From assembly GCA_965261395.1 (NCBI GenBank), contig OZ253462.1:1248001-1312000 (forward strand): a DNA stretch of 64,000 nucleotides. Direction: 5' to 3'. Under the pieces are notes generated by a model that was given only the letters and a program-made list of their open reading frames with translations, ran no database searches and was not told the DNA's origin. The position numbers and the translations under genes are program-made. Source of the stretch: Candidatus Latescibacterota bacterium. Its GTDB lineage: Bacteria; Latescibacterota; UBA2968; UBA8231. Below are positions 11,874-19,406 of the stretch, piece after piece (the first letter of the stretch is position 1; each line of letters opens with the position of its first letter).

Positions 11874-11989
11874 TGATTTATGAATAACTGACGTTACGCA
11901 GTTTTCCAGAAAATTCTCAATTTCGCCCCAATATCTTGGGTCAACAGGCTTCGATAAACCACAAGATAGGGAGCTACTGCGTAAGGTCA

Positions 11990-12133
11990 GTGAATAATTT
12001 GCCCCTCGTCGTCCTAATCGGCGACTCAATCCGCATGGGTTATCAGGACCATGTCGCCAGCCAGTTGGCAGGCCGAGCCGAGGTTTGGGCACCCGAAGAA
12101 AGGTTTAAAAAACAAAGGAAGGGCTCACTATGA
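11990..12133 (+). pseudogene. Truncated duplicate of the 5' end of the SGNH hydrolase gene at 18822
   Basis: Encodes PLVVLIGDSIRMGYQDHVASQLAGRAEVWAPE, identical to the N-terminus of 18822..19406, then diverges. Its stop overlaps the ATG at 12130. Confidence 0.85.
12002..12097 (+). repeat. Left 96-bp direct repeat (island boundary)
   Basis: Matches 18834..18929 with 2 mismatches. Confidence 0.92.
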
Positions 12134-13116
12134 ATCACTTACGTGGGTGGGCTATCGTCGTTGTGTGCGTCAGTCTATTGGGGGGCTGCTCCAACCAGAA
12201 GGCTCGCGAACAGCTCGTCCTAGACGTAGAGCGGCTTGTTTTGGAACACGAACGGTTTGTCCAAGACCTTGAGCGATACCACCAAGAGCGTGAACGGCTT
12301 GAGGAGCGAACGGTTGGGTTGGTTGCTGGTGTCTTTCTATCTGCGTGGCTCACCGATGGCGCGGCGGGACTGACCGGGGAAGCCGAGCAGATTTCCGAAG
12401 ATGCCAAACAGTTCGCCCCGGAAGCCGAGCGACTCTATCAAGAAGGCGAGCGACTGGCGTGGGAATTGAGACGCGCTTACGAAAAGCGCGACTGGTTTGT
12501 GCCAGAAGCCGAGCGACTCACCCAAGAGCGCAACCGGCTTGCCCAAGAATTAGATCAGATGTACCAAACTGTCGATTTGATAGAACAAGAATTCTTGCAG
12601 GCTGCCCAAGCATACACTGACACTTACCAAGAATACGACCAAGCCAAGAAAGCATTCGATCTGTGGAAACAAGAAAACCGGCACCTTGAGCAGACATTCC
12701 GTAAAGCGGAGGAGGACCTAATTCGAGCTTACGAAAAATACAACCAAGCCAAGCAAAACGACGACCAAGCTTGGAACATGTATAACGAATATAAAGATCT
12801 CGGATATAAATGGGGCGACGGTGTTCTCGAAGCAGCTAGCCAATCCTGGGAGCGGACCGGCGAAGCCCGTAAGCGAGCTTCCCAATCTTGGGAGCAGGCC
12901 AGCGAAGTATATCGCCAGGTGTCCGATGGATATTATCCATCCTACGAAGCATTTACACAGACATCTCAAGCCCATACTCAAGCGTCCGAAACTTACGATC
13001 AGATCCGCAAACGGCTTGAAGAAGACTTAGAGCGTGCGTACTTGAACTGGAATTGGCTAGATCCGTACTTGGATCGGCTTGTTCGAGATATGGGCTTACG
13101 CGTACGTGTGGACTGA
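12130..13116 (+). CDS. Coiled-coil lipoprotein, hypothetical
   Basis: Lipobox LLGGC, E/Q/R-rich heptads and an internal repeat F.PEAERL.QE..RLA.EL. Confidence 0.7.
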   Translation: MNHLRGWAIVVVCVSLLGGCSNQKAREQLVLDVERLVLEHERFVQDLERYHQERERLEERTVGLVAGVFLSAWLTDGAAGLTGEAEQISEDAKQFAPEAERLYQEGERLAWELRRAYEKRDWFVPEAERLTQERNRLAQELDQMYQTVDLIEQEFLQAAQAYTDTYQEYDQAKKAFDLWKQENRHLEQTFRKAEEDLIRAYEKYNQAKQNDDQAWNMYNEYKDLGYKWGDGVLEAASQSWERTGEARKRASQSWEQASEVYRQVSDGYYPSYEAFTQTSQAHTQASETYDQIRKRLEEDLERAYLNWNWLDPYLDRLVRDMGLRVRVD

Positions 13117-13274
13117 ATCAGGGGAATTCGTACACACGAAGATTGCAAAGGTCCCCTCGGGTCCTAAATTTCAAACGGAACCACCCAAAAATCTACCCAC
13201 GCATTGCTGAACTGCGAAAAATTCGCGGAATACGGTATCTTTTTGAGCGAGGAATTTACTGAGGAGGCTTGAAC

Positions 13275-13496
13275 ATGGCGACCAGAAGAACTATTTATAA
13301 ATACCACTTCAAGTTGGGTAATAAAATTGTCCACATGGGGATCACTAGGGACATCGATCGCCGCGAGGCCGAGCATCGGCGAAAATCTGGCTGGGGAAGG
13401 GGCCACATTGTGTAGATTGGTAGGCGCACCACCCAAGAAGCTGCGCTGCAGTGGGAAGCGGAACAGCGACGACAGGGCAAGCCCACAGGACCGTAA
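13275..13496 (+). pseudogene. Small GIY-YIG-like protein with an internal TAG
   Basis: RBS GAGGAGG. Translation [63 protein letters not shown]..., with the in-frame TAG at 13413-13415. Confidence 0.65.
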
Positions 13497-13507
13497 TACC
13501 CGAGGAT

Positions 13508-13822
13508 ATGGACATGGATAACCCAATTACACCTGGCGAGATTCTGCTAGAGGAATACCTCAAGCCCATAGGAATTTCGCAGAATGCCATGGCCCGCGCT
13601 ATGGGTGTCGCCCCAGGGGTAATCAATGAAATCGTCCACGATAGACGTTCGATTACTCCTGCGATGTCCATCCGCTTTGGCGCGTTCTTCGGCCAGTCCG
13701 ACGAATTTTGGTACAGGCTCCAAGTCGAGTGCGACTTTCGCAAACTGGCTCACGAAAAGAAGAGGTTTACTGACAGCATCCGCCCAGCTTCGACGCTAGG
13801 CCGGATCAAAGATACGTCGTAA
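13508..13822 (+). CDS. higA: HigA family addiction-module antitoxin (HTH)
   Basis: [29 protein letters not shown]...INEIV...[21 protein letters not shown]. Confidence 0.9.
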
Positions 13823-13855
13823 TTAAACTGGGGTTAGGACGCAGAAAGCTGTTAA

Positions 13856-14787
13856 GAAGCCGTCTGAAAACTATATTTTTTCTATTTGATCCGTTTGAGC
13901 AGCAAGTGGATCATAGCAATCTGGATCAAGGCTTCGCTATGGTGGGTCAACACCTCATAATCTCGGGCATGTCGGCGAAAATTCATCAACCACGCAAACG
14001 TGCGCTCGACGACCCAACGGCGTGGTAACACCTCAAAGCCGGGGCCTTGTTTGGCGACGACTTCCAAGTCTATTTTGTGCGTCTTTTTTACGTTAGCCAC
14101 CCACGTTCGGATCGGATCGCCTCGATAGCCGCCATCGCCCCACAGTTTGCGTAACCGGGCTACGCCGGAGGCCCCCAAGCGGGTCAACACCTGCTTGAGG
14201 CCGTCCCGATCCTCTACATCGGCGGCGGTGACCACCACCTGTCTAAGCAAGCCCGAGGTGTCGACCAACAGATGACGCTTGCGCCCCTTGACCTTTTTTC
14301 CGGCGTCATAACCGGTTGTTTTACCATGGGTTGCCGTCTTGATCGTCTGACTATCGACTACGCCAGCCGACGGCGTTGGAGCCCGTCCGTTGAGGCGGCG
14401 TTCCCGCTGGGTGAGTCGATCCAATACCTGCGGCCAGACCCCTTGTAGACTCCAGCGACGAAAGTAATCATACACCGTTTTCCACGGTCCAAAACAAGAA
14501 GGCAACAAAGCCCAAGGACAACCGGTCTTGGTCAGATACAAAAGGCCGTTGACGATCTGGCGTCGATCCCGCGGTGGCCGACCCGGACCGTTCGGCTGCC
14601 ATGTCGAAGCCGGCAGCAACGGTTCGATCCGACGCCATTGCACATCGGTTACATCGGTGGCATATTGCCTACTAGGCGTACTCATCATACGAGCCTTTCT
14701 GTTCAGATTTTGTCGCGAAACCTGAATATGGCTCGATGAGTACGCCGATTCAAATACCGGCTACAGCAAGGGTTTTCAGACGGCTTC
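13856..14787 (-). mobile_element. IS5 family (IS1031 group) insertion sequence, 932 bp
   Basis: Perfect 16-bp terminal IRs GAAGCCGTCTGAAAAC (13856-13871 and 14772-14787), flanked by a TAA target duplication (13853-13855 and 14788-14790). Confidence 0.93.
13882..14688 (-). CDS. IS5 family DDE transposase
   Basis: Y.TDVTD.QW, TGCPW..LP..FGPWKTVY, VDSQTIK, GYDAGKKVKGRKRH..VDT, DGGY and RWVVERTFAW. Confidence 0.95.
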   Translation of the reverse strand: MMSTPSRQYATDVTDVQWRRIEPLLPASTWQPNGPGRPPRDRRQIVNGLLYLTKTGCPWALLPSCFGPWKTVYDYFRRWSLQGVWPQVLDRLTQRERRLNGRAPTPSAGVVDSQTIKTATHGKTTGYDAGKKVKGRKRHLLVDTSGLLRQVVVTAADVEDRDGLKQVLTRLGASGVARLRKLWGDGGYRGDPIRTWVANVKKTHKIDLEVVAKQGPGFEVLPRRWVVERTFAWLMNFRRHARDYEVLTHHSEALIQIAMIHLLLKRIK

Positions 14788-14826
14788 TAAGGAATAGCTG
14801 AAAAACGCGGCGGTATAGGAAAGAGA

Positions 14827-17361
14827 ATGAGCGAACCATTAAAAATATTCATTACTTATTCGCATAAGGATACAAAGGCTATGGAAGAATTGCGAATACG
14901 CCTTGCTGTAATGGAACAACAAGGCAAAATAACACTTTGGGATGATAATAAAATTCTTCCAGGCGACGAATGGTATAAAGATATTTCCGACAACCTTGCC
15001 GATTCGGATGTTCTGCTCTACCTCGTCTCCGCTTGGAGTCTTGCCTCTAAAAACTGCAACAAAGAATTGGGCGATGCGTTAGACTCTAAGATAAGAGTCA
15101 TCCCCATTATCCTTGAGAGTTGCGATTGGCAAAATCATCGACTAAGCGGATACGAAGTCCTGCCTGATAAAGGCAAGCCTATTAACGAATGGACGCCTAA
15201 GAGCAAAGCCTGGCAAAATGTGGTAGAGGGTGTCCAAAAAGTGATTGATAAAATGCAAACTCAGATATCTGATAGTGCCCAAAAAGAAGCATTACCTAAG
15301 TGGGCATTTCTACAGGGTAACTTTCTGATAACGATAGGGCAAATTGACAGGGCGATAGAAGCCTACTCACATGTGATTGAGTTTGATTCAAATAGTGCCG
15401 TGGCATATGGTAATCGCGGTGTTGCTTACGACATCAAAGGTTATGCTGACCAGGCCATCGCAGACTTGAATAAGGCGATAGAGCTGAAGTCGGATGATGC
15501 CGTGGCCTACTACAATCGCGGCATCGTTTACCAAGGTAAAGAAGATATTGACAGTGCTATCGAAGACTATACTAAAGCGATAGAGATGAGTTTGGATTAC
15601 GCCGTGGCCTATTATAACCGTGGCAACGCTTACCACATGAAAGGCGCGTATGATCATGCTATCGAAGATTACAGCCAAGCAATAGAATTGAAGCCAAATT
15701 ATGTCGAAGCCTATAGCAATCGCGGCACCGTTTACCGTAGTAAAGGCGCGTATGATCGCGCTATTGCAGATTATACCAAAGTGATAGAACTAAACCCAAA
15801 TCTTGCTAAAGCCTATTACAATCGCGGCGTTGCTTACGGTATTAAAGGTGATTTTGACCACGCTATCGAAGATTGCAGCCAAGCGATAGCGCTGAGACCA
15901 GATTATGACGAAGCCTATAGTAATCGCGGCAACGCTTACCACATGAAAGGCGCGTATGATCGTGCTATTGCAGATTATACCAAAGCGGTAGAACTAAACC
16001 CAAGTGGTGCTGTGGCTTATTACAATCGCGGCATCGTTTACCGTAGTAAAGGCGCGTATGATCGTGCTATTGCAGATTATACCAAAGTGATAGAACTAAA
16101 CCCAAATCTTGCTAAAGCCTATTTTAATCGTGGTACGTGTTGGCTATATTTGCAAAACTGGCAAGAAGCCAAATCAGATCTGATAATTGCCAAGAGAATA
16201 GGTACGGATATTATCATGGAATTTCGTGACTATTACAGAAACATTAAGGCATTTGAAAGGAGGAGTGGTATCCAGTTGCCGAAAGACATTGCGGCCATGC
16301 TGACACAACGGCGACGGAGCCGTTTTCCCAAGACGGAAAAATTCTTGGATGCCGATGGCAGGTCCCTTGAATCGTCTGATGTAGTGAATTTGCGCGAGAG
16401 ACTCCGCAACGCCGGCATTCCTTTGGCACAATACGTCAAGACGAGGTCCTATTTTGGCATTAGGACAGGTAAGGACGAAGCGTTTGTCGTAGATAGCGCG
16501 ACGCGGGATGAACTCATTGTAGAGCATCCTTCATCCGCTGATATTTTGAAGCCGTTTTTGCACGGGCGCGGCATAAGACGCTGGCAAGTAGAAGCACAGG
16601 GTTTGTGGTTGATATTTGCCTACCGAGGAATAGAGATGAATAGTTATCCCGCTATCCAGAAACACTTAGAAAAATACAGGGATTCCCTGAGCAAAAGGGC
16701 AGGTAAACAGAAATGGTGCGAACTACAAGCAACCCTCAGCGACTCTAAGCGTTCTACGCAAACGAAGCTTGTCTGTCCAAATCTCTACAACCACCAGACC
16801 TTCGCCATTGAGACTGATGGTTTTTACTGTGGTCATACATGCTACATCATCCCGACAGAGGAAACGTGGTTATGTGGTGTTCTCAATTCCCGCGTCGTGG
16901 AGTGGTTTTATTCACAGGTGTCGAATCAATTAACAGGTGATGAACTTCGGGCACTCAGTGGCTATATGCAGCAGATTCCTATTCCTAATGTTACGTCAAC
17001 GCAGAAGGGGCTGATCGGCAAGATCGTCGATTACCTCGTCTATCTCCAGAAACAGCCAACTACAAATAGCAAGGACTTGGCATACGCCCGTGATTACGTA
17101 ATGCTCAAATATTTTGAGCGTATAATCGACGGACTGGTTTATGAGTCCTATCTGTCTGAGGAACTTCATCAGGGTGGCAAACATTTTTTCAACCCGTTGT
17201 TGGACGAACAGTTGCCTCAACCTGAAGAGATTCAGGGTGATAAAATGTCTGCGTTTCGGGATATATTTGAGCACCTGTATGAAAAAACGCATCCGGTTCG
17301 GAAGAACCTCTTCTTTCTCGATAGTTTGAAACCTATCCGCATCATTGAGGGCAAAGTATGA
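14827..17361 (+). CDS. TIR domain - TPR array - TaqI-like methylase C-terminal (target recognition) domain fusion
   Basis: N-terminal FITYSHKD...WDD.KI.PGDEW...CNKEL (TIR_2). About 8-9 AYxNRG TPRs follow. The C-terminus GIRTGKDEAFVV..ILKPFLHGRGIRRW..WLI..KWCELQ..KLV.P..CYII..LCGVLNS..QIPIP resembles type IIG/TaqI-type methylase C-termini. Confidence 0.8.
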   Translation: MSEPLKIFITYSHKDTKAMEELRIRLAVMEQQGKITLWDDNKILPGDEWYKDISDNLADSDVLLYLVSAWSLASKNCNKELGDALDSKIRVIPIILESCDWQNHRLSGYEVLPDKGKPINEWTPKSKAWQNVVEGVQKVIDKMQTQISDSAQKEALPKWAFLQGNFLITIGQIDRAIEAYSHVIEFDSNSAVAYGNRGVAYDIKGYADQAIADLNKAIELKSDDAVAYYNRGIVYQGKEDIDSAIEDYTKAIEMSLDYAVAYYNRGNAYHMKGAYDHAIEDYSQAIELKPNYVEAYSNRGTVYRSKGAYDRAIADYTKVIELNPNLAKAYYNRGVAYGIKGDFDHAIEDCSQAIALRPDYDEAYSNRGNAYHMKGAYDRAIADYTKAVELNPSGAVAYYNRGIVYRSKGAYDRAIADYTKVIELNPNLAKAYFNRGTCWLYLQNWQEAKSDLIIAKRIGTDIIMEFRDYYRNIKAFERRSGIQLPKDIAAMLTQRRRSRFPKTEKFLDADGRSLESSDVVNLRERLRNAGIPLAQYVKTRSYFGIRTGKDEAFVVDSATRDELIVEHPSSADILKPFLHGRGIRRWQVEAQGLWLIFAYRGIEMNSYPAIQKHLEKYRDSLSKRAGKQKWCELQATLSDSKRSTQTKLVCPNLYNHQTFAIETDGFYCGHTCYIIPTEETWLCGVLNSRVVEWFYSQVSNQLTGDELRALSGYMQQIPIPNVTSTQKGLIGKIVDYLVYLQKQPTTNSKDLAYARDYVMLKYFERIIDGLVYESYLSEELHQGGKHFFNPLLDEQLPQPEEIQGDKMSAFRDIFEHLYEKTHPVRKNLFFLDSLKPIRIIEGKV

Positions 17362-18788
17362 GAATCACCAAAATTGAGATTAAAAACTTCAGAGCCTTTC
17401 GTGGAACCTTAATCAATTTAAAGAAAGGGGAAAATCTGCTGATCCATGGCGAAAATGGAAGCGGAAAATCATCGTTATACCTCGCACTAAAATTTTTTCT
17501 TGAATCTGGTGAAGATGATTCCTATATGTCTAAAAGTCATCAGAACATTTTTACCGAGGGAGATGATCGATACATCAAACTGCATCTCCGTACAGACCAA
17601 CAGTCAGAGGAGGACATTTACGAATGGTCACAGAGTGCTAAGGAGGCAAATAACTCTTTGATTATTGAAGCATCAAAAACAAAAGGTTTTCTCGACTATA
17701 AGGCACTTCTGGAAACACACTATGTCCATCGCGAAAGCGATACTGTGAATGTATTCGAGTTGCTGATTAAAAATCTATTGGCAAATACTGTCAGCGTTAT
17801 AACAGGTCGAAGCCTTGCCGAAGACTGGGATGATATACAGCCACAGTCTCCACACCCAAATGCAATAGACCAAATTGCAATTCTTGAGGAACAGATAGAG
17901 AATTTTAATCAAGAATTAGCAAGTAGATTAAAAGAATTACAAAAAAAGGCATCTAAAATCCTCGACAAATTTGGGTACCATGTTGATCTTGAATTCGGCT
18001 TCCATAGGATTACATACAATCGCGAAAAAAAGATACTTGACGGTAAGCAGATTCTCTTGAAAATCAAATTCTTTGGAAGAGAGATTCTCATACATCAAAA
18101 CTTCCTAAACGAGGCAAAACTATCGGCGATCGCTATTTCTATCTACTTTTCGTCAATTCTGCTCCAGCCAGATAGCGAGTTGAAGATTCTCGCACTAGAT
18201 GACGTATTGATTGGCTTGGATATGTCAAATCGTATGCCAGTAATCGACATTCTAAAAGAATACTTCTCAGATTATCAGATATTCTTTATGACTTATGATC
18301 GTGCTTGGTATGAAATTGTCAAACAACGGACAGCGGATAGCGAATGGAAATACGCTGAATTCTACTTGAAAACTGACGAATACGAGATTCCGATCTATGT
18401 AGAAGATCGAGCGTATCTCGAAAAGGCGAAAGAGTATTTCAACATCAACGACTACAAAGCCTGTGCAATTTATCTTCGCACAGCCTTTGAAGTAGCGATC
18501 AAGAGATTCTGTGATAAGAAGAATCTCAAAGTCAGATACCGCGAAAATCCGAAAGACCTGACAAGCGACGATTTCTGGCAGGCAATAAAAGGAGAAAAGA
18601 CGAGAAATGGAGATCCCTTATTGGAACAGATACTCACTGACGAGATCGAACTGTACCGAAGTATTATCCTAAACCCGCTTAGCCACTCTCGCATTGTCTC
18701 CGTCGTCAAGAAAGAGATTTCCGAGGCAATAGAAGCAGTGGAAAATCTCGAAGTTAAGTTGGAGAAGTTAAGAAATACAAAGATATGA
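17358..18788 (+). CDS. ABC/SMC-type ATPase with C-terminal HEPN-like domain (RloC-like)
   Basis: IEIKNFRAF, Walker A GENGSGKS, signature variant FLNEA, Walker B ILALDD-VLIGLD and TYD. The C-terminus has YLRTAFE...RSIILNPLSH. ATGA overlap with the upstream gene. Confidence 0.8.
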   Translation: MRITKIEIKNFRAFRGTLINLKKGENLLIHGENGSGKSSLYLALKFFLESGEDDSYMSKSHQNIFTEGDDRYIKLHLRTDQQSEEDIYEWSQSAKEANNSLIIEASKTKGFLDYKALLETHYVHRESDTVNVFELLIKNLLANTVSVITGRSLAEDWDDIQPQSPHPNAIDQIAILEEQIENFNQELASRLKELQKKASKILDKFGYHVDLEFGFHRITYNREKKILDGKQILLKIKFFGREILIHQNFLNEAKLSAIAISIYFSSILLQPDSELKILALDDVLIGLDMSNRMPVIDILKEYFSDYQIFFMTYDRAWYEIVKQRTADSEWKYAEFYLKTDEYEIPIYVEDRAYLEKAKEYFNINDYKACAIYLRTAFEVAIKRFCDKKNLKVRYRENPKDLTSDDFWQAIKGEKTRNGDPLLEQILTDEIELYRSIILNPLSHSRIVSVVKKEISEAIEAVENLEVKLEKLRNTKI

Positions 18789-18821
18789 TTATGACGTTGC
18801 CTCGTCACTAGAGATTGCTCT

Positions 18822-19406
18822 ATGGCTAATACACCCCTCGTCGTCCTAATCGGCGACTCAATCCGCATGGGTTATCAAGACCATGTCGCCAGCCAGTTGG
18901 CAGGCCGAGCCGAGGTCTGGGCACCCGAACCAAACGGCGGCGATAGCCGCAATGTCCTCGCACATCTGGACCAGTGGGCTCTCGTACGCCAGCCGGATTT
19001 GGTACACGTCAATTGTGGGCTGCACGATTTGAAAAGGGCCTTTGGCGCAGAATCCGAGGTCTCTTTGGCCGAATACGAGCGCAACGTGCGCCAGATACTA
19101 CAAAGGCTGCAACGCGAATTAAACGGGGCCGTCGTCTGGGCCACCACCACGCCGGTGGACGAGACTTGGCACCACCAGAATAAGGGCTTCGACCGCCTAG
19201 AGGCCGATGTAGAAGCCTACAACGCGGCTGCCCGCGCCGTGGCGGAGGATTTGGGCGTGCCGATTGACGACCTCTTTGCCGTTGTCCAACGTGCAGGGAA
19301 GGCGCGGCTTTTGACCCAAGACGGGGTGCATTTTACCGCAGAGGGATCGCAGCTATTGGGACGGGCGGTGGCCGAGTGCATCTGGGAGCATCTGTCAAAC
19401 CGCTAA
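18822..19406 (+). CDS. SGNH/GDSL hydrolase
   Basis: IGDSI, NCGLHD and DGVHF. Confidence 0.92.
   Translation: MANTPLVVLIGDSIRMGYQDHVASQLAGRAEVWAPEPNGGDSRNVLAHLDQWALVRQPDLVHVNCGLHDLKRAFGAESEVSLAEYERNVRQILQRLQRELNGAVVWATTTPVDETWHHQNKGFDRLEADVEAYNAAARAVAEDLGVPIDDLFAVVQRAGKARLLTQDGVHFTAEGSQLLGRAVAECIWEHLSNR
18834..18929 (+). repeat. Right 96-bp direct repeat (within the SGNH gene 5' end)
   Basis: Matches 12002..12097. Confidence 0.92.

Follow-up and report, generated by a model that had tools for sequence, protein, structure and literature searches.

A TIR-TPR protein with a restriction-type recognition tail, coupled to an ABC ATPase with a HEPN-like domain: a candidate two-effector abortive-infection module in Latescibacterota

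A 64,000-nucleotide (nt) stretch of a Candidatus Latescibacterota genome (assembly GCA_965261395.1, contig OZ253462.1, positions 1,248,001 to 1,312,000 of the forward strand; here called the window) carries two overlapping genes that look like a defense module. Gene 1 (P0001; 14827..17361, + strand), defined by its open reading frame (ORF), its translation and its Pfam and PADLOC matches, encodes an 844-amino-acid (aa) protein made up of a TIR domain, an array of TPRs and a target-recognition domain (TRD) of the type that ends type IIG restriction-modification (RM) enzymes. Gene 2 (P0002; 17358..18788, + strand), defined by its ORF and by matches to Pfam SMC_N, AAA_15 and AAA_23, encodes a 476-aa ABC ATPase with a C-terminal domain predicted to have a HEPN-like fold. 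We lean toward the view that the two genes form an antiphage abortive-infection module with two effectors, a TIR NADase and a HEPN RNase, built on the principle of PrrC. We favor this reading because of the domain identities, the conserved catalytic-type residues, the translational coupling of the pair, the interchangeability of the N-termini joined to the recognition tail in related loci, and the variable site of insertion.

The TIR domain of gene 1 lies at residues 7-153 (14845..15285, + strand), resembles ThsB and has a catalytic-type glutamate, Glu80. Pfam TIR_2 matched residues 7-106 with 60.9 bits against a cut-off of 28 (E = 2.2e-16), and the PADLOC ThsB model matched residues 7-153 at 2.6e-25. 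The initial annotation of this DNA, made from the letters alone, had proposed an N-terminal TIR domain that keeps the glutamate in the motif CNKEL; this residue is E80, and it is kept in at least 97% of 99 aligned TIR domains. The TPRs that the same annotation placed after the TIR domain were found as 7 to 8 stretches matching Pfam TPR_1 and TPR_11, corresponding to an array of about 8 repeats at residues ~160-460 (15304..16206, + strand), and the DNA of the array contains six units with a 102-nt period at 15403-16116 (direct-repeat family D1, 63-87% identity). Because TPR-type relatives of gene 1 encode proteins of anything from 479 to 1758 aa, the repeat number of this protein type changes fast.

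The TRD occupies residues 575-719 (16549..16983, + strand), where Pfam TaqI_C gave 49.2 bits against a cut-off of 26.5 (E = 7.8e-13), with a weak match to MmeI_TRD. The last ~280 positions of the PADLOC type IIG endonuclease-methyltransferase model align to residues 505-774 at 8.4e-28, and the only solved structure related by sequence to the last 365 residues is the recognition part of M.BseCI (7.2e-5). The initial annotation had seen here the tail of a type IIG enzyme without methylase motifs, and this proved correct: the PADLOC IIG alignments to gene 1 begin at model position 853 of 1148, Eco57I and N6_Mtase are absent among the 25 listed of the 31 Pfam families matching gene 1, and there is no [ND]PP[YFW] (NPPY-type) motif in the protein. 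A helical tail at residues 720-844 (16984..17358, + strand), which segment identity and complex prediction mark as the putative docking surface for the ATPase, completes the protein. The C-terminal 365 aa have 912 relatives at E<=1e-3; among the best 120 of these, TaqI_C is accompanied by TPR families in all of those read, and BLAST finds a TIR domain in 78.

The stop codon of gene 1 and the start codon of gene 2 overlap as ATGA, read as gtATGAgaa at 17358-17361, and the coordinates, sizes and overlap originally given for the two ORFs were all correct. The public gene call for the gene 1 protein (P0006) is 826 aa long, 18 codons shorter (window positions 14827-14880). We prefer the 844-aa start, which has a AGGAAAGAG-like ribosome site 5 nt upstream, because the first 18 residues hold the conserved first strand of the TIR domain. 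Both ORFs are intact, and all of the catalytic-type residues are present. Identical contig pieces from sequencing runs (X1; X2 and X5; two studies), one of which may be the source sample, bridge positions 14762-15138, 15110-15651, 16094-16557, 16536-17396 and 17370-18863, and none of the listed pieces spans the TPR repeat core at 15651-16094. Thus, the fusion in gene 1 is no assembly chimera at its domain junctions or at the junction with gene 2, the TPR repeat core excepted. Among the sequencing runs listed as containing this DNA, none is of RNA.

Residues 1-344 of the gene 2 protein (17358..18389, + strand) are a Rad50/SMC-type ABC ATPase head, as seen from its profile, its predicted structure and a Walker A motif, GENGSGKS, at residue 31. 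A profile built from 53 homologues matched Rad50 in the Protein Data Bank at 8.1e-16 over positions 1-315. In the model of the full ATPase (mean predicted local distance difference test [pLDDT] score 91.3), the insert in the head is a single 34-residue helix, residues 170-203, and a Foldseek search with the whole model returned Rad50/SMC heads only and nothing on the C-terminal tail. The ATPase has 2563 relatives in the collection used for the gene 1 tail, and 541 clusters of a library grouped at 50% identity are related to it at E<=1e-30, over the full length and including the tail domain; their Atlas name is "AAA family ATPase."

The C-terminal domain of the ATPase, residues 345-476 (18390..18785, + strand), was folded alone with 47 sequences (pLDDT 83.6). 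Searched with VIA-align, this model matched 2hsb (Z 12.4, root-mean-square deviation 2.8, 117 residues aligned) and 4nqf (Z 11.4, root-mean-square deviation 3.4, 119 residues aligned), and 13 of the top 14 rows were HEPN-type, as judged by their titles or, for untitled rows, by the identity of the protein. These rows include the sacsin HEPN domain, an AbiA entry (aligned at its residues 493-627), SO_3166, Csm6 and a HEPN toxin; the sole exception, 3mfn, is titled "protein of unknown function." The Foldseek rows to rank 22 comprise nine distinct entries, all HEPN-type, with template-modeling scores of 0.42-0.73, five of them at 0.62 or above. Pfam profiles gave weak matches in the 47 members, DUF4145 in 42 (best 1.2e-4) and HEPN PF05168 in 17 (best 6.4e-4), and the window ATPase itself scored 17.2 bits with DUF4145, under the Pfam cut-off of 23.1. 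According to an excerpt of PMC3710099, DUF4145 belongs to the HEPN families and is frequently fused to restriction components. The uniform list of structure matches and the weak profile matches together support the assignment of residues 345-476 as HEPN-like at the level of the predicted fold.

In a set of 53 ATPases with 30-64% identity to the window ATPase, three residues of this domain never vary (R374, E378 and H443), and N439 is kept in at least 90%. The nuclease triad of PrrC, assigned by mutagenesis and chemical rescue, is Arg320-Glu324-His356 (excerpt of PMC1484252), so that R374-x3-E378...H443 has the make-up and the R-x3-E spacing of the PrrC triad, a likeness of pattern rather than a demonstrated positional equivalence. 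The initial annotation had described the ATPase as ending in RSIILNPLSH and had treated this string as a HEPN motif. It lies at residues 434-443, 33 residues before the C-terminus, and it reads R-x8-H rather than the canonical Rx4-6H; the local motif is R434-x4-N439-x3-H443, with L438 at the Arg position. The label of an RloC-like ABC-ATPase/HEPN holds in part: the Rad50/SMC head, the HEPN-like fold and the R-x3-E...H pattern agree with it, but membership in the RloC family is not supported by the sequence comparisons given below.

We compared gene 1 by segments with the tails of six IIG proteins and with the mean pairwise identity among 39 TPR-type tails. The linker (residues 480-574) is 31% identical to the six IIG tails and 55% identical among the TPR-type tails, the TaqI_C domain (575-719) 30% and 61%, and the tail (720-844) 60% and 62%. 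Complex prediction with the ATPase and the last 365 residues of its partner gave an ipSAE of 0.82 (three runs, 0.81-0.83) with a best control of 0.00; the ipSAE mark of the tool is met by 58 of 80 solved complexes and by 2 of 110 mismatched pairs. The runs had at least 77% of their contacts in common, and the pLDDT of the partner was at least 83. On the ATPase side, the predicted contacts involve residues 100-107, 145-151, 171-192 (the inserted helix), 215-217 and 269-273; on the partner side, they involve residues ~749-765 and 818-843, plus a few near 655, 704-706 and 783, so that most of the predicted interface residues of the partner lie in the tail. Physical contact of the ATPase with the tail is therefore a prediction of the modeling, and the last 125 residues of the gene 1 protein are likely to be the plug for the ATPase.

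The pair is not a one-off. A scan built on peptide patterns of the window protein, with one genome per species, gave 69 loci, 64 of them true relatives with ATPases 46-83% identical to that of the window; the other five (L065-L069) match the P-loop region only and were rejected as relatives. In 54 of the 64 loci, an ORF ending in the TRD shares 4 or 7 nt with the ATPase start; in 5 more, it lies at -30 to +100 nt from that start, giving 59 of 64; in one locus it is 810 nt upstream, and of the rest, two lack upstream DNA and two hold ATPase fragments only. At least five phyla have retained the pair, and one group of Poribacteria loci keeps it among the same housekeeping neighbors (nitroreductase, amidohydrolase, prepilin peptidase). 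Searches of a phage collection found no match at 1e-8, and three matches came from a plasmid collection, just one of them close. This one, on a Nostoc conjugative plasmid, is a minimal form of the pair, a bare 338-aa TaqI_C protein without TIR or TPR overlapping a 47.6%-identical ATPase, and the two are annotated merely as "TaqI-like C-terminal specificity domain-containing protein" and "AAA family ATPase." A Thiospirochaeta plasmid match (27.6% identical) was set aside as a different system, since it has an AAA_13-type head and a 285-aa upstream gene without assignment.

The N-terminal module joined to the tail varies. We typed it in the 48 loci with an intact ATPase, using Pfam on exemplars and BLAST to those, and found TIR in 14, FRG in 16 (in 5 of them as a separate upstream gene), an HNH_5-containing region in 3, a complete Eco57I-type IIG methylase with TaqI_C (1170-1306 aa) in 7, TPRs only in 6, and a module of unknown type in 2. 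Not counted here is L047, an eighth locus of the methylase type, in which the ATPase is split. A full-size HKD(PLD)-SNF2 helicase gene of ~1080 aa stands directly before the IIG methylase in six loci (L006, L008, L009, L013, L019 and L039), a fragment of it only is found in L042, and the helicase matches the PADLOC model "C3a139 HKD+Snf2" at 1.5e-124. In three loci of the TIR, TPR or FRG type, a complete IIG methylase gene immediately precedes the pair (L015:732-4157, L033:1376-5221 and L037:1350-5045). The initial annotation had suggested that the RM catalytic core was exchanged for TIR-TPR while the tail and the ATPase were retained, and these loci, with the TRD gene before the ATPase in nearly all and a full IIG methylase in seven or eight, support the view that either the core or TIR-TPR can stand before a DNA-recognition tail that was retained together with its ATPase partner.

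A more distant example comes from a Prevotella record (NC_022111.1, L080), in which a 27.5%-identical ATPase is found in the order helicase, Schlafen-type gene, Eco57I methylase with TaqI_C, ATPase, HNH. The Schlafen-type gene between helicase and methylase (L080:2066-3460) carries AlbA_2, HATPase_c_4 and Fic-like_C, and the gene after the ATPase (L080:8874-9746) carries HNH_5; the record is nearly unannotated in the collection. Among the Poribacteria, four loci (L024:1958-8004, L014:4603-8004, L044:3438-8004 and L055:1597-8004) have extra tandem TIR-TPR genes before the TPR-TRD gene or have TIR-TPR and TPR-TRD as separate ORFs, and these could be either split forms or frameshifts in the repeat array.

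In a quick maximum-likelihood IQ-TREE tree of 55 ATPases, which is unrooted and was midpoint rooted for drawing only, the window ATPase groups with TIR-partnered sequences in a six-member clade (support 96), whose sister group is made up of six IIG-partnered ATPases (support 100). The deep branches include an Acidobacteria IIG locus and the Nostoc TRD-only locus. At minimum, the TIR label changes at least 7 times and the FRG label at least 10 times on this tree, and closely related ATPases have therefore swapped front ends repeatedly. The linkage of IIG methylase and ATPase is old and wide, because it extends from this family to the Prevotella record, and the TPR-type proteins look like derivatives of the IIG-linked form. 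Because of this breadth (Acidobacteria, Prevotella), the methylase form is likely to be ancestral, and the direction of the swap, from catalytic core to TIR-TPR, is likewise only likely on the sequences compared.

The pair lies in an insertion at a variable site. The G+C content is 0.38-0.49 over 14800-18800 and ~0.60 in the flanks. We compared 10 kb around the pair with 25 genomes of the same genus: in five of them (G135, G160, G154, G156 and G088) the left and right flanks abut, and window positions ~11887-18815 are therefore an insertion (11887..18815, ~6.9 kb, unstranded). Two further genomes (G142 and G148) have the pair at the same site with 85-89% identity and without the insertion sequence (IS) described below, and three (G127, G124 and G143) have other short content there. 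A direct repeat of 103 nt (family D2, 95% identity, spacing 6832, unstranded), with its left copy at 11995..12097 and its right copy at 18827-18929, brackets the insertion, and the right copy spans the first codons of a GDSL/SGNH hydrolase gene (18822-19406). Of 151 genomes of the phylum, 11 have the ATPase; within the genus, with the window genome (G000) excluded, 4 of 21 have it. This patchy occurrence and the variable site are typical of defense genes.

The IS, of the IS4/5 family, lies on the - strand at 13855..14788, with a DDE transposase at 13882-14688 (DDE_Tnp_1, DUF4096) and perfect 17-nt inverted repeats (I3). The genome contains nine more copies that are 100% identical; the IS is missing from the homologous island in G142 and shows 5-10x the depth of its flanks in the sequencing runs, and it looks recently active. 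The insertion also contains a 328-aa coiled-coil ORF (12130-13116) with long E/Q/R-rich internal repeats and a lipoprotein-like N-terminal signal, read from MNHLRGWAIVVVCVSLLGGCS; no Pfam family scored above cut-off in it. An element of ~115 nt at ~11883-11999 is found again elsewhere in genomes of the same genus. Elsewhere in the window genome, the PADLOC HmaB methylase model has near-full-length matches at G000:C1:5678634-5681465 and 3911154-3913718, plus ~15 weaker ones, and the genome seems rich in Hma/BREX-related methylases.

In the working that we propose, the tail (720-844) would dock on the inserted helix of the ATPase head and so tie the TIR-TPR part and the DNA-binding TRD to the ATPase. 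The complex may sit on or sample DNA as its RM-type relatives do, and the ATPase cycle would be altered by a phage cue, either a DNA feature or DNA mimic perceived by the TRD or a phage protein perceived by the TPR array. The ATPase switch would then free the two effectors, the TIR domain cleaving NAD+ and the HEPN domain cleaving RNA, perhaps tRNA, so that the infected cell stops growing. We infer the trigger, the enzyme activities and the phage protection. A phage protein or DNA mimic as the trigger has, in our estimate, a little short of an even chance; a DNA feature read by the TRD is a serious candidate that we rate slightly lower, and a trigger of some other kind seems improbable. An anti-restriction DNA mimic is favored because the TaqI_C domain is conserved and because IIG genes adjoin the pair in the three loci (L015, L033 and L037) noted above.

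We extend this tentatively, with somewhat less confidence than we have in the module itself, to a modular immune family. In such a family, a restriction-enzyme recognition tail would be the universal plug that joins TIR, FRG, HNH or whole nuclease-methylase front ends to one PrrC-like ATPase/HEPN protein, the TIR form would fire NAD+ loss and RNA cleavage at once, and the family would have multiplied in uncultured phyla, with long, fast-changing TPR arrays as the sensor of phage proteins. The uncultured phyla that hold the family are typical of sponge microbiomes.

Several observations weigh against the proposed module. At the level of the HEPN assignment, the Foldseek E-values for the domain are only 0.05-0.6, VIA-align Z scores of 10-12 can be reached by chance for helical bundles according to the note that accompanies the tool, and there is no canonical Rx4-6H within ATPase residues 345-476. 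The Pfam family of PrrC and RloC, AAA_13 (PF13166), is not among the 8 Pfam families that match the ATPase at E<=0.01, and an hhalign comparison of the HEPN-domain profile with one AAA_13 (RloC-like) C-terminus from a genome of the same class, a weak test with a single sequence, gave a probability of 0.44%. AAA_13 had no match anywhere in the window genome at 1e-5 and is scarce in the phylum (2 of 151 genomes); there is a precomputed PF13166 match in one relative, P0182, which is 72% identical to the window ATPase. A PADLOC run, suggested at the outset, returned the domain-level ThsB and IIG-tail matches, and PADLOC 2.0 and NCBIfam together gave domain-level or generic matches only and named no validated system. 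The relatives come almost entirely from metagenome-assembled genomes titled Poribacteria, Latescibacterota, Gemmatimonadetes and Acidobacteria, a bias to few phyla that is partly an effect of the peptide-pattern search. The IS end lies 38 nt before the gene 1 start and may influence its expression. For DNA sensing in particular, the even conservation of TaqI_C among TPR-type proteins (61%, against 62% for the tail) speaks against many DNA specificities. The window genome holds no methylase with a similar TRD, the best other match being 27% identical (C1:5227783), and a sequence-specific DNA trigger would therefore risk self-activation; the same figure led us to reject a cognate methylase that shares this TRD. 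The genome also holds no second copy of the pair.

Two of these points would suit an alternative that we consider unlikely, namely, that the pair is a second-strike guard or decoy whose TRD tail imitates the C-terminus of a IIG enzyme, such that bound anti-restriction proteins switch on the TIR and HEPN domains and DNA reading is unneeded. PrrC is activated when T4 Stp hits EcoprrI, and PARIS is activated by Ocr. A guard of this kind would fit a TaqI_C domain that is conserved (61%) rather than diversified among TPR-type proteins, a genome without a cognate methylase for the TRD, and the full IIG methylase gene directly before the pair in L015, L033 and L037. A role of this kind, as a second line of defense, has been proposed for ABC-HEPN proteins encoded in RM operons (excerpt of PMC3710099), and PARIS is named as a precedent in an excerpt of PMC12839542. 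However, no RM gene adjoins the pair in the window, the other IIG-like or HmaB-like methylases of the genome are far away, and an anti-restriction-protein trigger and DNA sensing fit the data alike.

It is very unlikely that the pair plays no part in defense, either as a remnant in decay or as a selfish addiction module of the toxin type, carried by a mobile island, whose TIR or HEPN toxicity would only stabilize the insertion. Such a reading could draw on the 6.9-kb insertion beside an IS with nine further identical copies and on split or truncated copies of the pair in L003, L038, L047, L049, L050, L058 and L060, among others, but both window ORFs are intact with their catalytic-type residues all present, the pair extends across at least five phyla with 541 ATPase clusters at E<=1e-30, and the Poribacteria set keeps it among constant housekeeping neighbors. 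Poribacteria are associated with sponges, and pieces of both genes that are ~90-95% identical to those of the window occur in a run labeled "sponge metagenome" (X19). That gene 1 might be a eukaryote-like TIR-TPR protein of a symbiont aimed at the immunity of an animal host, with the ATPase an unrelated or regulatory neighbor, is an idea to which we give hardly any credence: the relatives in Poribacteria and similar genomes, the sponge run and the greatly varying length of the TPR arrays (479-1758 aa proteins) could be cited for it, but translational coupling to a cytoplasmic-type ATPase-HEPN protein in 54 of 64 loci, the alternation of TIR with HNH, FRG and a restriction-methylase core on the same tail, the core pair without TIR or TPR on the Nostoc plasmid, and the DNA-recognition domain that forms the C-terminal part all argue against it.

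Compared with known systems, the proposed abortive-infection module most resembles PrrC-EcoprrI of Escherichia coli (type Ic). PrrC likewise has an ABC-type NTPase head followed by a C-terminal RNase-type domain of the HEPN superfamily with R-x3-E plus H (excerpts of PMC1484252 and PMC3710099), and its gene is tied to the DNA-specificity component of a restriction system. Unlike in PrrC, where the spacing from R to H is 36 residues, it is 69 residues in the window ATPase; the partner is a IIG-type TaqI_C tail rather than hsdMSR, with no hsd genes in the locus, and this partner bears its own TIR effector and TPRs. The window ATPase also differs from both PrrC and RloC in lacking an AAA_13 sequence match. 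RloC shares the combination of a Rad50/SMC-like ABC head and a HEPN RNase in one protein (excerpt of PMC3710099), but it is not RM linked and has a long coiled coil with a zinc hook (excerpts of PMC3874168 and PMC3710099), whereas the window ATPase has one 34-residue helix and a TRD-protein partner. The C-terminal 280-365 residues of gene 1 align to the tails of type IIG RM enzymes (Eco57I/MmeI type), with 31-50% identity to the IIG proteins found before the same ATPase family, but gene 1 has TIR and TPRs in place of the methylase and nuclease parts.

The likeness to Thoeris consists of a ThsB-like TIR domain with the conserved glutamate; there is no ThsA-type partner in the insertion, which holds the IS transposase, the coiled-coil ORF and the ATPase, and no search for ThsA was made elsewhere in the genome. 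TIR and TPR act together in phage defense in the two-gene BcTir/BcTpr system of Bacillus cereus (excerpt of bioRxiv 10.1101/2023.05.26.542521), whereas here both belong to a single protein with a restriction TRD, which is coupled to an ATPase-HEPN protein. The IIG-type relatives share the layout of HKD-SNF2 helicase, N6 methylase and ATPase with the Hma/BREX-related "BR" systems, and type-2 BR systems have an HKD domain at the helicase N-terminus (excerpt of PMC12839542). The BR ATPase, however, is of the DUF499 STAND type according to the same excerpt, and here it is an ABC ATPase; the HmaB model misses the partner methylases at IIG-type loci while matching other places in those genomes, the HmaA model matches the Helicase_C region only in IIG-type relatives, and the window locus has neither helicase nor methylase. 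PARIS also couples an ABC ATPase sensor to a translation-stopping nuclease effector (excerpt of PMC12839542), but AriA matches residues 1-65 only, a Toprim partner is lacking, and here the ATPase and the effector domain are parts of one protein. As for MADS, NCBIfam antiphage_MADS3 scored 17.8 bits against a cut-off of 420, and PADLOC mad3 aligns to ATPase residues 2-312 at 2.4e-11, as a generic ABC head. Taken together, these comparisons suggest that the pair may work like PrrC-EcoprrI, yet does not belong to the PrrC family by sequence, nor to Thoeris (the locus lacking ThsA), Hma, MADS or PARIS. Our literature search turned up no account of proteins with the architecture TIR-TPR-TaqI_C, none of a TaqI_C tail that has an ABC-HEPN ATPase as its partner, and nothing on the pair in work on sponge symbionts; the ABC-ATPase classification of Krishnan et al. 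(2020), which may treat this ATPase clade, and the supplementary tables of PMC12839542 and PMC3710099, which may contain gene neighborhoods of this kind, were not covered.

The set of intermediate architectures in this family is unusually complete. If our reading is correct, they outline a concrete route from RM to abortive infection, in which the catalytic core was traded for a suicide effector and the recognition tail and the ATPase/RNase partner were kept. The pair would also be a second, sequence-unrelated example of the PrrC principle, that is, an RNase held by a restriction component, and a widespread gene pair that has so far been labeled generically would gain a name. The genomes of sponge symbionts have a well-known excess of TPR proteins, and if the reading holds, part of this excess may consist of immune sensors rather than host interaction factors.

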